A stretch of DNA of 24,689 nucleotides from a virus. Of this stretch, positions 7,530-24,689 are shown in pieces (positions within the stretch are counted from its first letter, which is position 1; each line of letters begins with the position of its first letter). The stretch is from UHGV virus genome UHGV-1601690. One strand, written 5' to 3'. The notes beneath the pieces are model-generated. The model ran no database searches, was not told where the DNA came from, and worked only from the letters and a program-made list of their open reading frames with translations. A program made the position numbers and the translations under genes.

Positions 7530-9260
<1,731 letters not shown>

Positions 9261-10528
9261 ACGGCAAACATTCCCAATTCACAGAGTCCGACCTAAACCA
9301 CATGAAGCGGCTTAGGAATTACAGACTCTCCAAGGGCTAACACTGCCAGCCCGGCAGCTTTTATATTACGGGCCGCGTTAATATCACGATCATGCTCTGC
9401 GCCACATTCCGGGCAGTGCCATTTACGAATATTAAGAGGCATTTTTTGCATGGTGAAGCCGCAACTGCTGCAACGTTTGGAAGAAGGGAAATACTGGTCG
9501 ATAGCGACAATGCTACGTCCACCCCATTCTCCTTTGTACTGGAGTTGGCGTACAAGTTCGCTCCAGCCTGTGTCAGCTATTGCTTTAGACAGCTTCGGGT
9601 TACGGATCATGTTTTTCACTTTAAGGGATTCAACGCAAACAACTTGGTTTTCGTTAATCAGTTTGCGGGACAACTTATGCAGGTTATCCATCCGACAATC
9701 GACTATTCTCGCGTGGAGGCGGGCAACCTTTAAACGTGCTTTGGCGCGGTTCTTTGAGCCTTTTTGTTTCTTGCTCAATCTGCGCTGTAACACTGCTAAT
9801 CGCTTCGCGTATTTAGCGTTGTGTCGAGGATTGCCAGTTTTAAAACCGGTATCGGTGACGAACAAATCTTTTAAACCAATATCAATGCCGACCGTGGAAA
9901 CGGTGATCGGCAGTGATACAGGCTCAAACTCGCAGAGACAGGATACAAAATATCGTCCGGCAGCATCCCTGGTGATAGTGACAGTGGATGGAGCAGACGG
10001 CAACGGACGGCTCCAGCGAACATCTAACGGCTCTTTGCCATGTACAGCTTGCCGTCACGGTATTTAAATGCGCTGGCAGTTAGTTCTGCGGCCTGTTTAT
10101 GCCGCTTGCTCTTAAAAACTGGGTATGCAGCACGCCCGGCGAAAAAGTTAGCAAAAGCCGTTTGTTGGTGGCGCAGAGACTGCTGGAGGGGGACGCAGGA
10201 AACGTCATTCAGCCAGGCGAATTCTGGTTCTTTTTTCAGTGCCGTTAATTTGGCGCTGGCTTGTGCATAGCCGACCCTCTCATGGCGTGCGTAGTACGCA
10301 TCGGTGCGCCAGCGAAGGAGGCTGTTATAGACAAAACGCACACACCCAAAAGTCCGGGCTAATAGCTCGGTTTGTTCGGGAGTTGGATAGAATCGATATT
10401 TATAGGCACGCTTCATGTTCTATATAATACATTGAAACTAATGAGTATATAAATGAATACACGGACGAAAATGTTATCAAAGCCAATATACCAACAGACA
10501 TTAGGTAAGGTAGCTGGAGGGCAATATA
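9261..10528 (-). mobile_element. tnpB-only IS200/IS605-family insertion between prt and pro (ends not determined; coordinates are the surrounding intergenic limits)
   Basis: No Y1 tnpA-sized ORF on either side. Only 32 nt separate the convergent prt and tnpB stops, so the right end must abut or overlap the prt 3' end. Confidence 0.5.
9293..10416 (-). pseudogene. tnpB: tnpB (IS200/IS605-family OrfB, RNA-guided nuclease family), split by a frameshift
   Basis: N-terminal fragment 10024-10416 (MKRAYKYRFYPTPEQTELL...) and C-terminal fragment 9293-10003 (RuvC-like region and CxxC...CxxC zinc finger, KRCSSCG...HCPECG) lie in different frames. The C-terminal frame is open upstream and reads PLDVRWSRPLPSAPSTVT, continuous with the N-terminal fragment if one base is restored near 10027-10033. 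Confidence 0.85.
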
Positions 10529-11548
10529 ATGACTGATGTTTTGAAAACGGTCACTGACCGCTTTTGTCTCTATAGCAATGCTCGAAAAGGTCGCCAGAAC
10601 GGGCGACAGTATGTATTAAGCGCGGTTAAGACCATGCTTGAAAGCAAGGAAACTCAGGAAGGTTTACGCCTTGGAGAGCTTTTCGGCTATTACGGTCACG
10701 GTCGCCGACAGCTGACCGGCAAACTGGAAGTACCAGAAACCAGCGTAATCATGGTGGAAGGTCGCCCGGTCATAATCGACAATGTTCCAGCGTGCCGAAC
10801 AGTGGCTATATCTGTTGACGACAACGGCATCGTTACCCATACACAGGAAATTCTTAATACAGAGCCGGGGAAAATCGTCGCCGCGATGATCGAAAGCCGT
10901 GCTGGTGGCTGGAGCTGGGCCACTGGCGGGCGCGAGTCCGGGAAAATCGCTGTAACCACCAGCTTCCATGGTGTGGATTATGTGACAACGCCGAACTATA
11001 TAAGTCTGGATCATCCTGCCAGCGCCGGAATGTTTGAAAGCGCGGATTCTAAATCTTTACTGGCAGAGTCCCTGGCGGCGCATGGGTACTCCGACGAGTC
11101 AGTGCAGGCCGTTATATCCCATTACGGCAAAATGGCTGAACTGGAAATGATGGTGGAGGCGACAGAGCGTACGGCAGAACTGGAGACCGCACTACTCGAA
11201 AGCCAGGGCCGCCACCTCGAAGCAATGGCCAAGATCGCAGATGCTGAAGCGCGAATTGCTTTGCTGGAGGAAACAGCGGGTATCCGCGACGATGTGCTGG
11301 CAGCAATGCAAGACGAACTGGATAACCTCCCGATCTTCGTCTCCGCCGCCCAAAAAGACGCATTCCGCCTCAAAGAACCTGGTGATGCAAAAATCGTTGC
11401 CACACTTTTCGAATCTCTGATCAAAGTTGGCGCGCGCAACTTGCCTGTCACTAAGAAAATTAAAGAGGTTCCGCAAGCGGCTAACGTCCAGGCACCGCGT
11501 GAGACAAGCATCATCACGTTTAATAATTCAATCAATCCGTTCAAATAA
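10529..11548 (+). CDS. pro: Putative prohead protease/scaffold (P1 Pro position)
   Basis: 339-aa ORF, ATG preceded by GGAGGG. C-terminal third is coiled-coil-like (AELEMMVEATERTAELETALLES...). Assignment by synteny. Confidence 0.55.
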   Translation: MTDVLKTVTDRFCLYSNARKGRQNGRQYVLSAVKTMLESKETQEGLRLGELFGYYGHGRRQLTGKLEVPETSVIMVEGRPVIIDNVPACRTVAISVDDNGIVTHTQEILNTEPGKIVAAMIESRAGGWSWATGGRESGKIAVTTSFHGVDYVTTPNYISLDHPASAGMFESADSKSLLAESLAAHGYSDESVQAVISHYGKMAELEMMVEATERTAELETALLESQGRHLEAMAKIADAEARIALLEETAGIRDDVLAAMQDELDNLPIFVSAAQKDAFRLKEPGDAKIVATLFESLIKVGARNLPVTKKIKEVPQAANVQAPRETSIITFNNSINPFK

Positions 11549-11561
11549 CCACCAAAAATAA

Positions 11562-11587
11562 CCCCGGCGGCTGCCGGGGTTCTCGTT
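11562..11587. terminator. Bidirectional rho-independent terminator between pro and the lyz-side genes
   Basis: Stem CCCCGGC / loop GGCT / stem GCCGGGG (11562-11579), followed by TTCTCGTT on the plus strand and by TTATTTTTGG on the minus strand. Confidence 0.6.
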
Positions 11588-11595
11588 AACTATTA

Positions 11596-11847
11596 TCACC
11601 TTCGTCTGCGTGCCATATATTTGCGCACCGCGCGGCGTGGACAATCTGAAGCGGTTTCTTTCTGCTGCATCAATCTCGCGGCCATGCTCAAAAATGTCAG
11701 GCACAGCCGAAGCCCAGCATACAATAGCGGTTCCAGTGGCCACGTTTCATTAAGCACATATACCGCCATGAAAATCGAGTCGAAAACTATCGCTGCCAGC
11801 GATAACTTCATTGTCGAAAGTCTGCGGAGCTGCCGGAGTTTATTCAT
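11596..11847 (-). CDS. Small two-TMD membrane protein with a basic C-terminus, holin/pinholin-like, overlapping the lyz stop
   Basis: 83-aa ORF; ATG at 11845-11847 overlaps the lyz 3' end by 8 nt. Hydrophobic segments LSLAAIVFDSIFMAVYVL and PLLYAGLRLCLTFLSMAA, then RRAVRKYMARRRR. Confidence 0.4.
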   Translation of the reverse strand: MNKLRQLRRLSTMKLSLAAIVFDSIFMAVYVLNETWPLEPLLYAGLRLCLTFLSMAARLMQQKETASDCPRRAVRKYMARRRR

Positions 11848-12397
11848 TGACCAGTCCCGTCAGGCAAAGCAGGCGTTCTTTTTCACGGCGAATCTTTAAA
11901 CCTCGCAGGGGCACGCCGTTACTGTTCACAAAATCAGGGAGATGGTTACACATATTCACCCATTCCCCTTTCTGCGCCCACTTGTGGATGGACGTTTCGA
12001 CTCGCATGCCTCGCGCTTTGCTGTAGTAGGTCCGTAAGCTATTGCATCCCATATTGAATGCCGCGCTTGTCATTGCACTGAAGGCATTATCGGGCATGTC
12101 TTTGCCCCGGAAGTGCTGATTAATACAGCGTTCAGCGATCAGGATATTCTTTTCCCAATCAGCGGCGATTTGCTGGTCGGTTTTTCGCACACCCGGCGTT
12201 ACCCCGTGTGTATTACCGATCCCGTCAGTCCATACCCCCGCCGGGCACATGTATGGATCACGTCGGCAACCTTCAGCGTTTCCGATAAGCTCAAGCCCCG
12301 CCTGGTTGGTTCGCACATTGCCATTACCCATCACGATGGTAATCATCACCGCGATAGCGCAAATTGCACCGCCTCCTGCGGCTGTTTTTCCCTTCAT
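11840..12397 (-). CDS. lyz: SAR (signal-arrest-release) endolysin, T4-lysozyme-like muramidase
   Basis: N-terminus MKGKTAAGGGAICAIAVMITIVMGNG is a Gly/Ala-rich SAR domain and matches my recollection of P1 Lyz. Catalytic region ELIGNAEGCRRDPYMCPAGVWTDGIGNTHG. Internal ATG at 12395-12397 gives 185 aa; the longer 218-aa track ORF is an upstream extension. Confidence 0.9.
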   Translation of the reverse strand: MKGKTAAGGGAICAIAVMITIVMGNGNVRTNQAGLELIGNAEGCRRDPYMCPAGVWTDGIGNTHGVTPGVRKTDQQIAADWEKNILIAERCINQHFRGKDMPDNAFSAMTSAAFNMGCNSLRTYYSKARGMRVETSIHKWAQKGEWVNMCNHLPDFVNSNGVPLRGLKIRREKERLLCLTGLVNE

Positions 12398-12530
12398 AAA
12401 GACCTCATAAGCGAATTTTTTACGCTCCAGGACAAACACCCATTCACAGCCATTACCGACTGACTCGATCCCTTTAGAAGGCACAGGATAATGCAAATCA
12501 CTTGTTAGCTACGTTTCAAAGATATACATT

Positions 12531-12547
12531 ATTGCTCTAATTAATTT
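12531..12547 (+). promoter_or_regulatory. Candidate P1 C1-repressor operator 20 nt upstream of ssb
   Basis: ATTGCTCTAATTAATTT matches the remembered C1 operator consensus ATTGCTCTAATAAATTT at 16 of 17 positions. It overlaps the expected ssb promoter. Confidence 0.45.
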
Positions 12548-12566
12548 ATTTTATTAGGTAAGATAA

Positions 12567-13055
12567 GTGGCACAACGCGGTGTAAACAAAGTCATCCTGA
12601 TTGGTACCCTGGGGCAAGACCCGGAGATCAGGTATATACCAAATGGCGGAGCGGTCGGAAGACTCAGCATCGCAACGAATGAATCATGGCGCGACAAGCA
12701 AACGGGCCAACAGAAAGAGCAAACAGAATGGCATAAAGTCGTTTTGTTCGGAAAACTTGCTGAAATTGCGAGTGAGTATTTACGAAAAGGTTCTCAGGTC
12801 TACATCGAAGGGAAACTTAAAACCCGTAAGTGGACAGATGAGGCCGGTGTAGAACGCTACACGACGGAAATTATCGTCAGCCAGGGCGGCACCATGCAAA
12901 TGATCGGCGCTCGCCGTGACGATTCACAGTCCACAAATGGCTGGGGGCAATCAAACCAACCTCAAAACCACCAGCAATACAGTGGCGGCGGTAAACCTCA
13001 GAGCAACGCCAATAACGAACCTCCAATGGACTTTGAAGACGATATTCCATTTTGA
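12567..13055 (+). CDS. ssb: Single-stranded DNA-binding protein
   Basis: 162 aa, GTG start. OB-fold N-terminus [20 protein letters not shown]...[14 protein letters not shown], Gly/Gln-rich linker, acidic tail ending DDIPF as in E. coli SSB. Confidence 0.93.
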
Positions 13056-13106
13056 GAGGGCTGAAAGTTGCTCGATTACTTAAAAATAACTTTACCTAAT
13101 TGGTGT

Positions 13107-13132
13107 AAAAAAATGGGCGCAACAAAGCGCCC
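13107..13132 (-). terminator. Rho-independent terminator downstream of the porin gene
   Basis: Stem GGGCGC / loop AACAAA / stem GCGCCC (13115-13132); on the minus strand the stem is followed by a run of seven T (13107-13113). Confidence 0.6.
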
Positions 13133-13188
13133 CAACAATAGAGTTTCAAATTAATAAAAGGGTAATAAATAACATGAAGTTAAATTGA

Positions 13189-13303
13189 GAAGAGGCAATT
13201 TTATTGCCTCTTCAAAGGTGGCATGAGGGTGCCACCTATATGCGGGCAGTGACATCACTCCCTTCCCGCATATTCTTACCTACCAAAATTAGAATTGGTA
13301 GGT
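13189..13303. repeat. Cluster of four perfect inverted repeats in the porin 3' region
   Basis: GAAGAGGCAAT-TTT-ATTGCCTCTTC (13189-13213); GGTGGCA...TGCCACC (13217-13236); ATATGCGGG...CCCGCATAT (13238-13273); ACCTACCAA...TTGGTAGGT (13278-13303, spanning the porin stop). Confidence 0.6.
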
Positions 13304-14436
13304 CATACCAACAGCAACGATGTTGTCGGTTGCAACCTCAGATGCTTTGGTAAATTCACTTTCATCAATCAGGTTGATCTTGTAGTCAACGAAAGCGGAC
13401 ATATTTTTGTTGAAGTAATAAGTCGCGCCTACGTCGATGTATTCAACTAGATCCTGGTTACCGAACGCACCAATATTTTCACCGCGAGAGTGCAGGTAAG
13501 CGATGGACGGACGCAGGCCGAAATCAAACTGGTATTGAGCAACAGCTTCAAAGTTTTTCGCTTTGTTTGCGATAAAGTCATCACCGAAGACTGTCATATT
13601 CTGAGTTTCAGAATAAGTTGCAGCCAGGTAAATGTTGTTTGCGTCATATTTCAGACCAGTAGCCCATACTTCAGCTGTTTTACCAGAAGCATTCAGAGAG
13701 CTTGCATTAGCATAGGATACCTGTCCATCAGTACGGTCAGATTTTGCATAAGTTGCGCCAATGCCAAATCCTTCATAATCATAAGTAGCTGACAGACCGA
13801 AGCCATCACCATTAGATTCAACTACGTCGCGGCCTTTCCAGTTGTTCACTTTTGCAGCACTATCATTTTTACCCTGATACTGCAAAGCAAAGTTCAGACC
13901 ATCAACCAAGCCGAAGAAATCATTGTTACGATAGGTCGCGACGCCAGTAGCACGCTGGGTCATAAATACATCAGTCTGAGTCCAGGTATCTCCACCAAAC
14001 TCCGGCAGCACGTCAGTCCAAGCGCCAACATCATACGCTACACCGTAGTTGCGACCATAGTCGAGCGAACCATAATCGCCAAAGCGAAGCCCTGCAAACG
14101 CAAGACGAGTTTTGTCTTTATCAGAACCTTCAGTTTCAGTACGGTTACCTTTAAATTCGTACTCCCACTGACCAAAACCGGTTAACTGGTCATTAATCTG
14201 AGTTTCACCTTTGAAACCAAGACGCATGTAGGTCTTGTCGCCATCTTTAAACCCATACGAGCATAAGTTTTATCCCCGTCATCACTAGCTGAAGAAGAGA
14301 AGTAATGCTCTGCATTAACTTTGCCGTACAGATCCAGTTTGTTACCGTCTTTGTTATAGATTTCTGCCGCTTGTGCAGACATTGCCATCAGGACTGATGC
14401 TGCAACCGCAGAAAGTGCCACTGTGATTTTTTTCAT
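13289..14436 (-). pseudogene. OmpC/OmpF/NmpC-family general porin (phage-borne cargo), interrupted by a frameshift
   Basis: Signal peptide plus mature N-terminus ([40 protein letters not shown]...) in ORF 14182-14436; remainder of the barrel to the C-terminal ...VGMTYQF in ORF 13289-14227, in a different frame. Confidence 0.85.
14210..14280. repeat. Diverged 35-nt direct repeat at the porin frameshift
   Basis: Minus-strand copy A gacggggataaaacttatgctcgtatgggtttaaag ([12 protein letters not shown]) is followed directly by copy B gatggcgacaagacctacatgcgtcttggtttcaaa ([12 protein letters not shown]). The copies differ mainly at third codon positions, and the 35-nt offset shifts the frame. Confidence 0.7.
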
Positions 14437-14547
14437 TTTTTTGCCCTTTAGATTGAACTTTTCAGTAGAAAAGAGGTCACTGCGGACAAATGTTTATCTT
14501 TTTTGGATTCGTGTTTCAAGTTTTGCAAATAAAAATCAAGGTATTTT

Positions 14548-14563
14548 TGTGATCAAAATCACA
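14548..14563. promoter_or_regulatory. Perfect CRP (cAMP receptor protein) consensus site upstream of the porin gene
   Basis: TGTGA-TCAAAA-TCACA, both half-sites perfect with a 6-bp spacer, about 112-127 nt upstream of the porin ATG inside a roughly 740-bp AT-rich non-coding block (14437-15175). Confidence 0.45.
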
Positions 14564-15175
14564 AATAATAACCTTGAAAACCCAATGGACTATTAGAAAA
14601 ATCTCAATTCACAGAATAAAAATTGACAAAATAGAACAAAACACAATCAACAATAAGCACAAAAGACAAACAATTAAATTAGCACAAAAATAATAACTGC
14701 AAAAATAGATAGCCTGTTAATTAATAGGGTTTTAATGGATGTGGATTTGAAATCTACTTAAAAAGTAGAGTCAAATTAATTACTGTCGATTGGGTATTAA
14801 ACTGAATCTATATTGTGAGAGTTAAAGACGATGTGTTTTAGTTATACATGTTATTCCCTAAAATGGAGTAGTCTCATCGAATTCTGATTAATAACGAGCT
14901 AAGCCAATTCATTTTAGTATGTGTATATCTTTACCCTCTGAATATGCAATGACGAAGAGATATTAAACAATATGTAGCTTCAGGATTGACTCTGGAAGAA
15001 TTAAAAGATCGGCTAAAGTGTTCAATATGTGGTGAGCGAAACGCAAAAATTAAAATTTTTTGATCTAACATATTAGGCAATAGCTTGCTTCCATAACCTA
15101 AAGCAAGCCACTACGCGTTTACTTTAAGTACACAATTAACATATCAGAACAGATTATTTGTGCACTATCAGGGAG

Positions 15176-22112: not shown

Positions 22113-22181
22113 AAGTTCCCTCCTACGTTGTCAGGAGGTAATGGTATGCAAAGTAACTTCTCAACCGGTCATGTTGCTTGA

Positions 22182-22213
22182 CATCCTCCACGTCCTTTAG
22201 AGCGTGGAGGATG
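22182..22213. repeat. Perfect 11-bp-stem hairpin adjacent to the start of the intron-like region
   Basis: CATCCTCCACG - TCCTTTAGAG - CGTGGAGGATG; ends at 22213, and GTGCG begins at 22215. Confidence 0.75.
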
Positions 22214-22214
22214 T

Positions 22215-23060
22215 GTGCGCCCAGCATGGGCGCGATCTTGGAGGTGAAAGCCCTCCCGCGAGCTGACCACAGCGAGCGAAATGAAGTGCAACTGCGTGAG
22301 GGCGACCGGGCGTGGGGAGGAAGCACGGAATGAACCCGTGAGCCGATGAACGAGAATCGGATATGAGGCGCGATGGAGCAAGGCGAGCAGGCACATCACT
22401 GCGAAGCTTTCGTGGTCAAGTCGAAGTCGCGCAGATCCGACGGTTGTGCGGGGAAGGATCGCGTTCTTACCTGGGGAGTTCTCGCCTCATGCCTGAAAGG
22501 GCAACGTCGTAAGACGGAGCGAGAAGTCAGCAGAGGCCGTTGTAGTCAGGACTCCGACGAAGGGCCGAACGAGAAGGAAAGCCAGAAGATATGACTCTTG
22601 ACAGGACATTGCGTCAGAAGCCGGGGAAGCCCGGTACGGACCCGCATGCCGGGTGGTGTGGCAGGGGCGCAGCCCTTGTGCTCCCCCCTATGCCGATCAA
22701 GCAGAACATTGTGCTGGGCCTCTGACGCAGCTCCTTGATGGTCTTGGCATCGTGCTTAAGTGGATTGGTGTCGTCCCTGATAGGATCATGGAGGCAGAAT
22801 GAAACTCAAAAATCCGGGATAGCACGCAAAACAGGCTGCACAAAAAGCGCAGGTTGCGTAGGAGTGAAATCCCGCTCCCAAAAAATGGTGCAGAAGTTGC
22901 GGCAGTGGTCATCCGACGCACTGGAAAATAACAAACCCGCCGTGACCAGAATCGGAGGCCTGAGGGAGTGACCGAAAAACCGGACAACCCAGGCAGCAAA
23001 TACCCGCTGGATGAGGCATGGTTCCGGCAGATAATACCGAAAACCGCCAGACACACTGGA
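22215..23060 (+). ncRNA. Candidate 5' fragment of a group II intron (domains I-III and start of IV), truncated
   Basis: Starts GTGCGCCCAGCATGGGCGCG (compare the remembered Ll.LtrB 5' end GUGCGCCCAGAUAGGG). About 850 nt that look GC-rich by eye, with stops in all frames and many short helices; ends abruptly where AT-rich DNA begins near 23060. No reverse-transcriptase ORF or domain V present. Confidence 0.4.
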
Positions 23061-23117
23061 TAATCAGTAGAAATAATCCATTAAAGTTATTATAATAATT
23101 GGTCACATTATTATATT

Positions 23118-23681
23118 ATGCTGAACAATAGAAATATGACTATTAATGAACTTAAAGACTGTATTCACTATGAAGTAATTGGTAGCGAGCGTCCTTTCTC
23201 TTGGCGAAAAGCAATTGTTCGCGCAATAAAACATAGAAGAGTTCGTTATTTATTTTGGTGGCGCATATCAAAATATCTTTTTGATAAAGGCGGATACAGG
23301 CGAAAGGTTGCAGGGAAAATAGAACGCTTCATTCTTGACAAATACAATGTAACCGTTCCCTTAACGGTAAATATAGGGAAAGGGTTTGACATATCTTATC
23401 TCAATGGCGTTGTTATCGCTCACAAAGTCACAATCGGTGAAAATTGTTCAATTAAGCCCGGAGTAACTATTGGACTTCGCGGGGAATTTAATGACATGGA
23501 TATTGTTATAGGAGATAATGTGACCATTGGTTGTAATGCCACCATTCTTGGTGGCAAAGTGCGTATAGGAAACAATGTCACAATAGGTGCTCATGCATTG
23601 GTATTGCATGATATTCCTGATGATTCAACATTCATCACTAAATTTCAGTCTGAAGTTATCTGCTCGTCCTCCCGCACATAA
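23118..23681 (+). CDS. Hexapeptide-repeat (left-handed beta-helix) acetyltransferase, probable polysaccharide O-acetyltransferase; AT-rich cargo
   Basis: 187-aa ORF with consecutive hexapeptide repeats ([24 protein letters not shown]...[35 protein letters not shown]). AT-rich by eye, preceded by an AT-rich promoter-like stretch containing TATAAT. Start may be the second ATG at 23136. The 3' end overlaps the tfa 3' end convergently. Confidence 0.8.
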
Positions 23682-24262
23682 CCCTGATTCATCAGCTCTG
23701 GCCATACGATATCCGGAGCTGTACTGGTATCAATTCGACTCACTAATACTCTGTATTTTCTCCAGGAGTCCAGTTGTGAATTTTCCTCGTTTGTTGCTAT
23801 TTCAAGATTAACTGCGTCCTGCAGAATTGCGATGTTATCTGTTGCCTCCTGGATCAACCTTGCCTTTTTCTCTTCCGCTTCCCGTATCCGAAACAGTTTT
23901 TCTGCTTCCTCATCCTTCACCCAGGATACGCCGTCCCACTTCTGATACTCCCCTGCTGGCGACAACCAGGTGACATTCTCTGGTAGCGGTCCGGGTTCAG
24001 AAATAAACAACGCGTCCCCCGATGCCACCTCATAGACCGTTTTACCACGATGGTCTTCAACAATATTCCACGATTCATTTTCACTGTTGAAAACTGCCAC
24101 AAAGCCAGTAGGAATTTCCGGTGGGGCGATATCTGTAGAATTAGCTGGCAGCCCTGTATGAGGTGGAATATATGCGTCATCTTCACCAATAAACTCATTA
24201 GTTCCGGCCAGCAGGTTATAAATTTTTACTGTACGTGATTGTTCACTCATTCTGAATGCCAT
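23645..24262 (-). CDS. Tail fibre assembly chaperone (Tfa / P1 U-like)
   Basis: 205-aa ORF with a Tfa-type C-terminal region (DIVWPEL...). Its ATG overlaps the tail-fibre stop (TAATG). The last few codons run into the AT-rich cassette. Confidence 0.85.
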
Positions 24263-24689
24263 TATGCAAGCCTCACAATATAATTAAATGCGATGTTTTT
24301 AACGGTGTTTTCCGCGTTACCAGCAGCATTAACGGTGATGGTATGTCCATGTGAACCAATCGCAACAGAGTGCGTATGAGCGCCAATACCAACTGTATGT
24401 GCATGCGCCCCTGCACTTGCAGCAGTGCCTGATACTGAGTGGGTGTGTGCACCAGAAGAAGGCACTGTTCCATTCCCCACGACCGTGCCACTTGATGAAC
24501 CATCAAGCCAGTCGAAATTCATACCTCCACTGTTTGGTCTCCTTAATGGAACGGTATGAGTATGTGCGCCAGCACTATTTGCAGTACCAGATACATTGTG
24601 GGTATGTGCACCTGTGTTATTCGTTGGTTTAGTACCGTAATCAAACGACGATGTGGTTTTCGTCCCCAAATCCGTACTGGATGCGCTGG
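24262..24689 (-). CDS. Tail fibre protein, C-terminal receptor-binding part (5' end beyond the window)
   Basis: Frame is open to the window edge. Repeated GAHTH(S/T)V(S/P) motifs ([21 protein letters not shown]...[21 protein letters not shown]) are typical of Mu S / P1 S / lambdoid side tail-fibre C-termini. Confidence 0.8.

Follow-up and report, generated by a model that had tools for sequence, protein, structure and literature searches.

The porin gene carried as cargo by the phage-plasmid analysed here has probably been turned from an intact gene of the P7 nmpC type into a pseudogene by a real, recent and host-templated insertion, through a template switch or short-patch illegitimate recombination. 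By sequence comparison, the foreign DNA is only a patch of 30-52 nt that would derive from the ompC gene of the host chromosome and not from another phage porin. The window (the whole stretch of 24,689 nt of the virus genome UHGV-1601690) is part of a phage-plasmid of the P1/P7 family (Punavirus) and, for the greater part of its length, aligns to P7, P1 and many IncY-type Escherichia coli plasmids. Its genes follow the order lxc-olxA-darB-proA-proB-lydD-lyz-ssb-nmpC-odaA-prt-odaC-darA-odaE-lydB-lydA, in which the porin occupies the P7-type nmpC cargo position between ssb and odaA/hxr-prt(ddrB).

Structure of the disrupted porin gene

The porin gene lies on the minus strand (13289-14436, start at 14436) between ssb and odaA/hxr, in the same order as in P7, and is broken into two ORFs in different frames; its identity to P7 nmpC is 98.2% over 1.6 kb. 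The features of the locus are given below, all on the minus strand.

13289..14436, minus: disrupted cargo porin gene of the P7 nmpC type (OmpC-subfamily general porin); 98.2% identical to the P7 nmpC region, with Porin_1 and NCBIfam OmpC-subfamily matches for the reconstructed protein
14368..14436, minus: signal-peptide coding part, 23 codons, same as the P7 stretch annotated sig_peptide
14182..14436, minus: N-terminal fragment ORF, 84 aa (signal peptide, strand 1, loop L1 and an out-of-frame tail), Porin_1 profile positions 1-37
13289..14227, minus: C-terminal fragment ORF, 312 aa, without signal peptide and in the -1 frame relative to the N-terminal ORF, Porin_1 profile positions 31-337
14246..14280, minus: nmpC's own segment (copy 1), a paralogue of the inserted patch, ending at the illegitimate left junction GGTTT|AAAG (14249/14248), from sequence comparison
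14214..14248, minus: 35-nt insertion AAAGATGGCGACAAGACCTACATGCGTCTTGGTTT, whose removal restores an intact 1113-nt allele with 0 mismatches
14198..14249, minus: 52-nt stretch TAAAGATGGCGACAAGACCTACATGCGTCTTGGTTTCAAAGGTGAAACTCAG matching, at 100% identity, a minority ompC allele of the E. coli chromosome; it comprises the donor tract and the shared block
14198..14218, minus: 21-nt block GGTTTCAAAGGTGAAACTCAG that nmpC has in common with the donor ompC; it forms the right-hand (homologous) junction and is the longest exact identity of the two genes
14245..14251, minus: TTTAAAG, a heptamer of the X XXY YYZ kind that is in phase, arises at the left junction and overlaps GGGTTTA; candidate site for trace -1 frameshifting only
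13115..13132, minus: terminator-like GC hairpin with a T-run downstream of the porin gene, from a consensus scan only

The preliminary description of this DNA had proposed a porin with signal peptide split into two frames, and the profile searches agree with it. Against Pfam PF00267 (Porin_1, cut-off 23.7 bits), the 84-aa piece scored 39.3 bits and the 312-aa piece 452.5 bits, and their matches overlap by exactly the duplicated piece; the reconstructed protein covers positions 1-337 of the profile with 494.6 bits and also passes the cut-off of NCBIfam NF007841 for the OmpC subfamily (531.7 versus 484). A single continuous ORF spanning the signal peptide and the whole barrel is absent from the window and was obtained only after in-silico removal of 14214-14248. 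The 35-nt tandem direct repeat with different synonymous codons was likewise confirmed: copy 1 (14280-14246) directly abuts the second copy (14245-14211), 23 of the 35 bases are identical and the differences fall mostly at synonymous third positions. The coordinates of the split needed a slight correction, to an insert at 14214..14248 with the frame change at 14248/14249. Screening upstream of the porin for a minus-strand sigma-70-like promoter gave none at the scan threshold, with counts at chance level, which says nothing on expression.

Insertion into a known intact allele

Alignment to P7, JL22 and phi456 revealed exactly 35 extra bases in the window, with nmpC-like flanks on both sides, and the seven alleles that were fetched all read ...CGT(A/C/T)TGGG(T/A)TTCAAAGG... 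a single time. Every match of a 241-nt probe across the site, among 114 plasmid and 549 E. coli records, spans 206 nt (241-35). Together with the 52-nt exact match to ompC described below, this puts the observation well outside the reach of chance. Once 14214-14248 are taken out, the 1113-nt ORF and 1566 nt of gene plus flanks show 0 mismatches to pYLPI7b (NZ_CP074035.1, WP_000724561.1), and this intact allele of the P7 nmpC type is present on many P1-like plasmids. The gene is composed of nmpC nucleotides 1-188, 35 nt of ompC and nmpC from nucleotide 189 to the end, the recipient sequence having suffered no loss. Considering that no other change was found in the 1566 nt, the insertion appears to be recent.

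These observations contradict the view that two different porin alleles were joined at this point, since both halves share their closest relatives. When the two parts were aligned separately, the 3' part (13100-14209) was 100% identical over 1110 nt to 19 plasmids among the matches listed, and the 5' part (14246-14700, 455 nt) showed one difference in many of these plasmids, the two matches abutting exactly there; the same plasmids are thus recovered on both sides, an outcome that the preliminary description had itself named as refuting its two-allele model. The related suggestion that a 35-nt deletion would restore an intact mosaic porin was right on the intact ORF (0 mismatches) but not on the mosaic, as the restored gene is an ordinary allele; a mosaic product (A->M, M->L) would arise only from deleting the first copy and not the patch. 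Two further statements fared better, namely that local replication slippage is not the source, the second copy coming from a different porin gene, and that the porin gene would be inactivated, its ORF being split in two frames.

Origin of the inserted bases

The second copy is identical to ompC at 35 of 35 positions, compared to 23 of 35 for the neighbouring nmpC copy. The match to ompC extends over 52 of 52 nt, 30 of these bases being absent from nmpC, and the 52-mer was found at 100% identity in the chromosomal ompC of 55 of the 5426 E. coli genomes and never on plasmids, while most of the other E. coli genomes differ from it by one or two bases. The donor allele carries ...GACTCTAAAGATGGCGACAAGACCTACATGCGTCTTGGTTTC.... 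Among genuine plasmid porins no 52-mer was detected, the best 'plasmid' matches being Mb-sized records with ompC at 96-98%. An exact 27-mer of the patch was not found in IMG/VR and occurred in three GTDB species representatives, in chromosomal ompC-like genes matching only 29-45 nt. Another porin allele of the P1/P7 family was rejected as donor because the 27-mer and the 52-mer are both missing from all seven fetched alleles and from the true plasmids.

The two ends of the patch are of different kinds. On the right, the last five inserted bases and the 16 that follow make up the 21-nt block shared by both genes, for which the next-longest identity blocks measure 17 and 14 nt in an overall identity of 66%. 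After ...CAG the window reads as nmpC (ATTAATGAC) and not as ompC (GTTACTGAT). An example of a chimeric 31-mer of the type ompC-specific, shared and nmpC-specific is CGTCTTGGTTTCAAAGGTGAAACTCAGATTAATG. The left junction (14249/14248), GGTTT followed by AAAGATGG, has only 0-1 nt of strict microhomology, or, with a 1-nt gap permitted, 5 nt (TAAAG compared with T[C]AAAG). The re-entry point was also considered as the best nmpC match for the left end of the ompC tract and rejected as not distinctive, since AAAG is found 10 times in nmpC and other positions offer better 8-12-mers; it is simply the site closest to the 21-nt block.

We infer that the element and the donor ompC allele resided in one cell, an arrangement documented only for strain ECNB21-M121, which holds both this allele and a P1-like nmpC plasmid. 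The patch would then serve as a host fingerprint, predicting that the element lived in the approximately 1% of E. coli with that ompC allele and that the host ompC reads ...TCCGATAACGACTCTAAAGATGGCGACAAGACCTACATGCGTCTTGGTTTCAAAGGT..., as in strain H9Ecoli.

Related elements and a second insertion at the same site

Between proA and proB the window carries an IS605-family tnpB (9246-10516; HTH_OrfB_IS605, OrfB_IS605 and Cas12f1-like TNB domains), where P7 has nothing. This gene is split into two minus-strand ORFs (10024-10416 and 9293-10003) by the loss of one copy of the 7-nt tandem repeat GCTCTTT near 10029, as compared to CP100027.1, the closest complete relative. The tnpB element of CP100027.1 itself contains an additional 4.1-kb insertion (10270-14368; window 9763-9770) that carries the lincosamide resistance gene lnu(G) and a permease, with an 8-bp overlap at its alignment flanks. 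A look-up of the allele-specific 130-aa tnpB product recovered at least 11 contigs of the window's lineage in Logan and ENA assemblies, and because the same split allele occurs on these contigs from several samples it can be regarded as an inherited lineage marker.

Among these sister contigs, L018 and L021 have the wild-type junction and are as close to the window as L019 (ENA ERZ773505 NODE_1081, a 5.7x metagenome contig), which shows 2 mismatches to the window in 11.7 kb; a further contig, L022, is 100% identical over 9.1 kb and ends before the porin junction. In the porin of L019 (5908-7128, corresponding to about 14249 of the window), 108 nt copied from the ompC allele that served as donor in the window are inserted in frame, and at the nmpC site affected there. 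This gene (P0001) consists of nmpC nucleotides 1-184, the 108 nt and the remaining nmpC, and its predicted product of 406 aa has a duplicated strand1-L1-strand2 unit. The insertion region shares 128 nt of exact identity with the window's donor allele, and the 128-mer occurs at 99% identity or more, always on the chromosome, in those same 55 E. coli genomes among the 5426 (exactly in 54). The right junction falls in the same 21-nt block, while the left junction, ATGG followed by TTTACAAC, comes after nmpC nucleotide 184 rather than 188. The two porins share the 7-nt tnpB deletion of their elements, the donor allele and the right junction, but the L019 insertion differs in its length (108 nt), in being in frame and in its left junction. 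A simple deletion in L019 would leave ATGGTTTAAAG, a 34-nt remnant, instead of the ATGGGTTTAAAG (35 nt) of the window, which suggests that the two insertions are independent events of the same type. Such a second independent event in a sister element in turn suggests that ompC sequence repeatedly enters through the 21-nt identity island when this host and this plasmid are paired.

No insertion like that of the window or of L019 was found in any other public record searched. The window junction was absent from phages, plasmids, complete E. coli genomes, JGI metagenomes and IMG/VR, making it a singleton allele; chimeric ompC/nmpC patterns were not detected in JGI metagenomes and IMG/VR, and an exact protein look-up had neither the 84-aa nor the 312-aa product on record. 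Four porin relatives of odd length (P0005, P0010, P0121 and P0122) were evaluated as ompC patches and rejected, being self-duplications or altered N-termini. P0005, a P7-type allele, has TEGSD twice in tandem and P0010, a DLP12-type NmpC, has a 42-aa repeat, both near the N-terminus, and the N-terminal part of the porin gene seems prone to duplication events of several kinds.

Alternative explanations

A sequencing or assembly artefact, in which ompC reads or chimeric molecules entered the nmpC consensus of a real element with an intact porin, is unlikely, even though the allele is a singleton, the 21-mer common to ompC and nmpC can tangle a k=21 graph and the only other case comes from a 5.7x metagenome contig. 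The left junctions (GGGTTT followed by AAAGATGG in the window and ATGG followed by TTTACAAC in L019) are spanned by no k-mer of either gene, and for this reason an assembly graph cannot create them; physical molecules dominating the coverage would be needed. Moreover, the window has no stray indels relative to five close relatives (CP100027.1, L018, L019, L021 and L022) over 9-20 kb, all its other P7-homologous ORFs are full length, and two assemblies with different junctions but the same rare donor allele are not expected from random chimeras.

It is less probable still that the window allele is an L019-like 108-nt in-frame allele that underwent a secondary internal deletion, that is, one founding ompC capture followed by decay. 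The near identity of both sequences over 11.7 kb, the common donor allele and right junction speak for a single capture, and events of this type are described as very rare. However, 77 nt would have to be replaced by GTTT, and the equally close sisters L018 and L021 have the wild-type junction.

Because the insertion shifts the frame and leaves a stub and a body without signal peptide, no functional porin would be expected: the gene is predicted to be a pseudogene that yields a secreted 84-aa stub and a 312-aa body. Functional recoding, by which a -1 slip at T TTA AAG would produce a porin of full length whose loop L1 contains 12 inserted residues and would keep the gene alive, is very improbable. 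The junction does read G GGT TTA AAG with in-phase slippery heptamers; the heptamer keeps the phase of the upstream ORF and sits where a -1 shift reaches the downstream ORF (the 312-aa body), which uses the -1 frame; and a small hairpin (CAAGAC/GTCTTG) begins 7 nt downstream. Nevertheless, the downstream fold is no better than shuffled sequences (z -0.05 to -1.1), and the heptamer was made by the mutation and shows no conservation, all relatives reading TTTCAAAG. Heptamers without a stimulator in E. coli reach only 2-10 times a background of 0.055% (PMC4066793). Rescue by -1 frameshifting was consequently rejected for its lack of a stimulatory structure and low expected efficiency. For annotation, the porin is best described as a fresh pseudogene of a known cargo gene, and neither as a mosaic nor as a new porin.

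A local tandem duplication by slippage with later divergence of the copies is hardly credible, despite the tandem arrangement and the plain self-duplications known in the porin family (P0005, P0010), since it would place 12 differences in 35 nt and none in the other 1566 nt, and the second copy is ompC base for base. Just as little credence can be given to the joining, out of frame, of two phage porin alleles that differ in ancestry, one supplying the 5' part and the other the 3' part: the tandem copies use different codons, yet each part has its matches in the same plasmids, at 100% or with a single difference, and the foreign tract, of at most 52 nt, comes from chromosomal ompC. Repeats of the type made by diversity-generating retroelements were dismissed on sequence grounds, since the differences show no adenine specificity and copy 2 has exactly the ompC sequence.

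Repeated loss of the porin and other features of the element

The same cargo porin is interrupted in several relatives. In CP100027.1, IS10/ISVsa5 is inserted at the 9-bp target TGCTCTGCA (window 14306-14314), and IS3-family elements interrupt the gene at two different sites, in pET6.1-IncY (L014) and in the chromosome of PK8241 (L015). The nmpC of prophage DLP12 in E. coli K-12 is inactivated as well, by IS5. An interruption of nmpC by IS10 has been described in pSvP1 (PMC6906374). Since the same porin was independently destroyed in pSvP1, CP100027.1, pET6.1-IncY and PK8241, its loss is common. Together with the second insertion in L019, these IS hits indicate that P1-like plasmids, a good many of which come from multidrug-resistant or livestock isolates, repeatedly alter or lose the cargo porin.

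The region beyond lydA (22163-24689) has no match to P7 or P1, which have lydC, cin and the invertible C-segment there. It encodes a 187-aa hexapeptide-repeat acetyltransferase (23118-23681, plus strand) that scores below every NCBIfam equivalog cut-off, with serine or sugar O-acetyltransferases as best matches, and may represent a surface-modifying conversion gene. Its ORF overlaps a tail-fibre assembly gene (Caudo_TAP, 23645-24262, minus strand), which is followed by a tail-fibre gene (24262-24669, minus strand). Additionally, several complete E. coli genomes, among them NZ_CP032426.1, NZ_CP007592.1 and NZ_CP080139.1, have the P7-type nmpC region on the chromosome and not on a plasmid, at 98.6% over the probe, which suggests that these regions belong to integrated P1-like elements.

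Proposed mechanism and comparison with known systems

The host-templated insertion that we favour can be outlined as follows. In a lysogen with the minority ompC allele, a nascent DNA end, or alternatively a stray single strand of ompC, would at a replication fork or a break pair with nmpC by way of the 21-nt block. Approximately 35 nt of ompC (108 nt in L019) would then be copied or carried into nmpC, and the other end would be joined out of register, generating the essentially illegitimate left junction. The outcome would be one homologous anchor of 21 nt and one illegitimate junction, for which a template switch at the fork, the integration of an annealed strand, and break repair with end joining are all candidate routes.

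A broader proposal, which we put forward tentatively and with considerable doubt, is that the 21-nt island is a natural hotspot at which host porin sequence is repeatedly written into the prophage nmpC by short-patch templated insertion, giving null (35 nt) and in-frame surface-loop/hairpin (108 nt) alleles that are possibly kept by selection from phages, antibiotics or immunity. If this proposal holds, it would be the first natural and recurrent process resembling SPDIR (short-patch double illegitimate recombination) recorded in E. coli, and a chromosome-to-phage path by which porins diversify.

Regarding known alleles, P7 nmpC (AF503408, AAQ07495.1) occupies the same ssb-odaA/hxr locus and is 98.2% identical, whereas the window allele differs by the ompC-derived 35 nt and the frameshift; without its 35 extra nt, the window allele is 100% identical to that of pYLPI7b (WP_000724561.1). 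The lambdoid phage porins Lc (PA-2) and NmpC (DLP12) are likewise phage-borne members of the OmpC family but belong to another phage family and another locus, and the protein matches named 'outer membrane porin protein LC' are 72-73% identical. The IS-inactivated nmpC elements have the same cargo porin knocked out, in their case by transposon insertion and here by a host-templated microindel.

The event is a known but rarely documented kind of mutation, resulting in a new allele and no new kind of system. Homology-facilitated illegitimate recombination, reportedly described by de Vries and Wackernagel in 2002, inserts foreign DNA by one homologous anchor and one illegitimate junction. It is said to involve incoming DNA during natural transformation and anchors of hundreds of bp, in contrast to the window event, which would be intracellular, with a 21-nt anchor and a tiny patch.

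In SPDIR, according to a preprint, ectopic single strands anneal at microhomologies with tolerance of gaps and mismatches and become part of the nascent strand, leaving microindels that can be traced to their template (bioRxiv 10.1101/2024.07.02.601687). The preprint also states that such templated microindels have been measured almost only in reporter assays in Acinetobacter and that natural reports are lacking (bioRxiv 10.1101/2024.07.02.601687). The mutation pattern in the window fits this published description: a short ectopic tract is traceable base for base to a template elsewhere and the outcome is a microindel. SPDIR junctions lie at microhomologies in which gaps can occur, as is also given in a second preprint (bioRxiv 10.1101/2023.11.22.568220). 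With regard to the junctions, the right one has 21 nt of identity and the left one 1 nt under strict comparison or the 1-nt-gapped TAAAG, in DNA that is homeologous (66%) and not fully heterologous. The differences from SPDIR are that the template here is a 66%-identical paralogue, that one anchor is a perfect 21-nt match, above typical microhomology, and that the recipient is a phage-plasmid in E. coli. SPDIR has its template and target in one cell, depends on single strands and replication and is limited by RecJ/ExoX; DprA and RecFOR also belong to its genetics. Overall, the disrupted porin gene offers a clean natural example of a templated microindel, its patch being assignable base for base to one particular ompC allele of the host.
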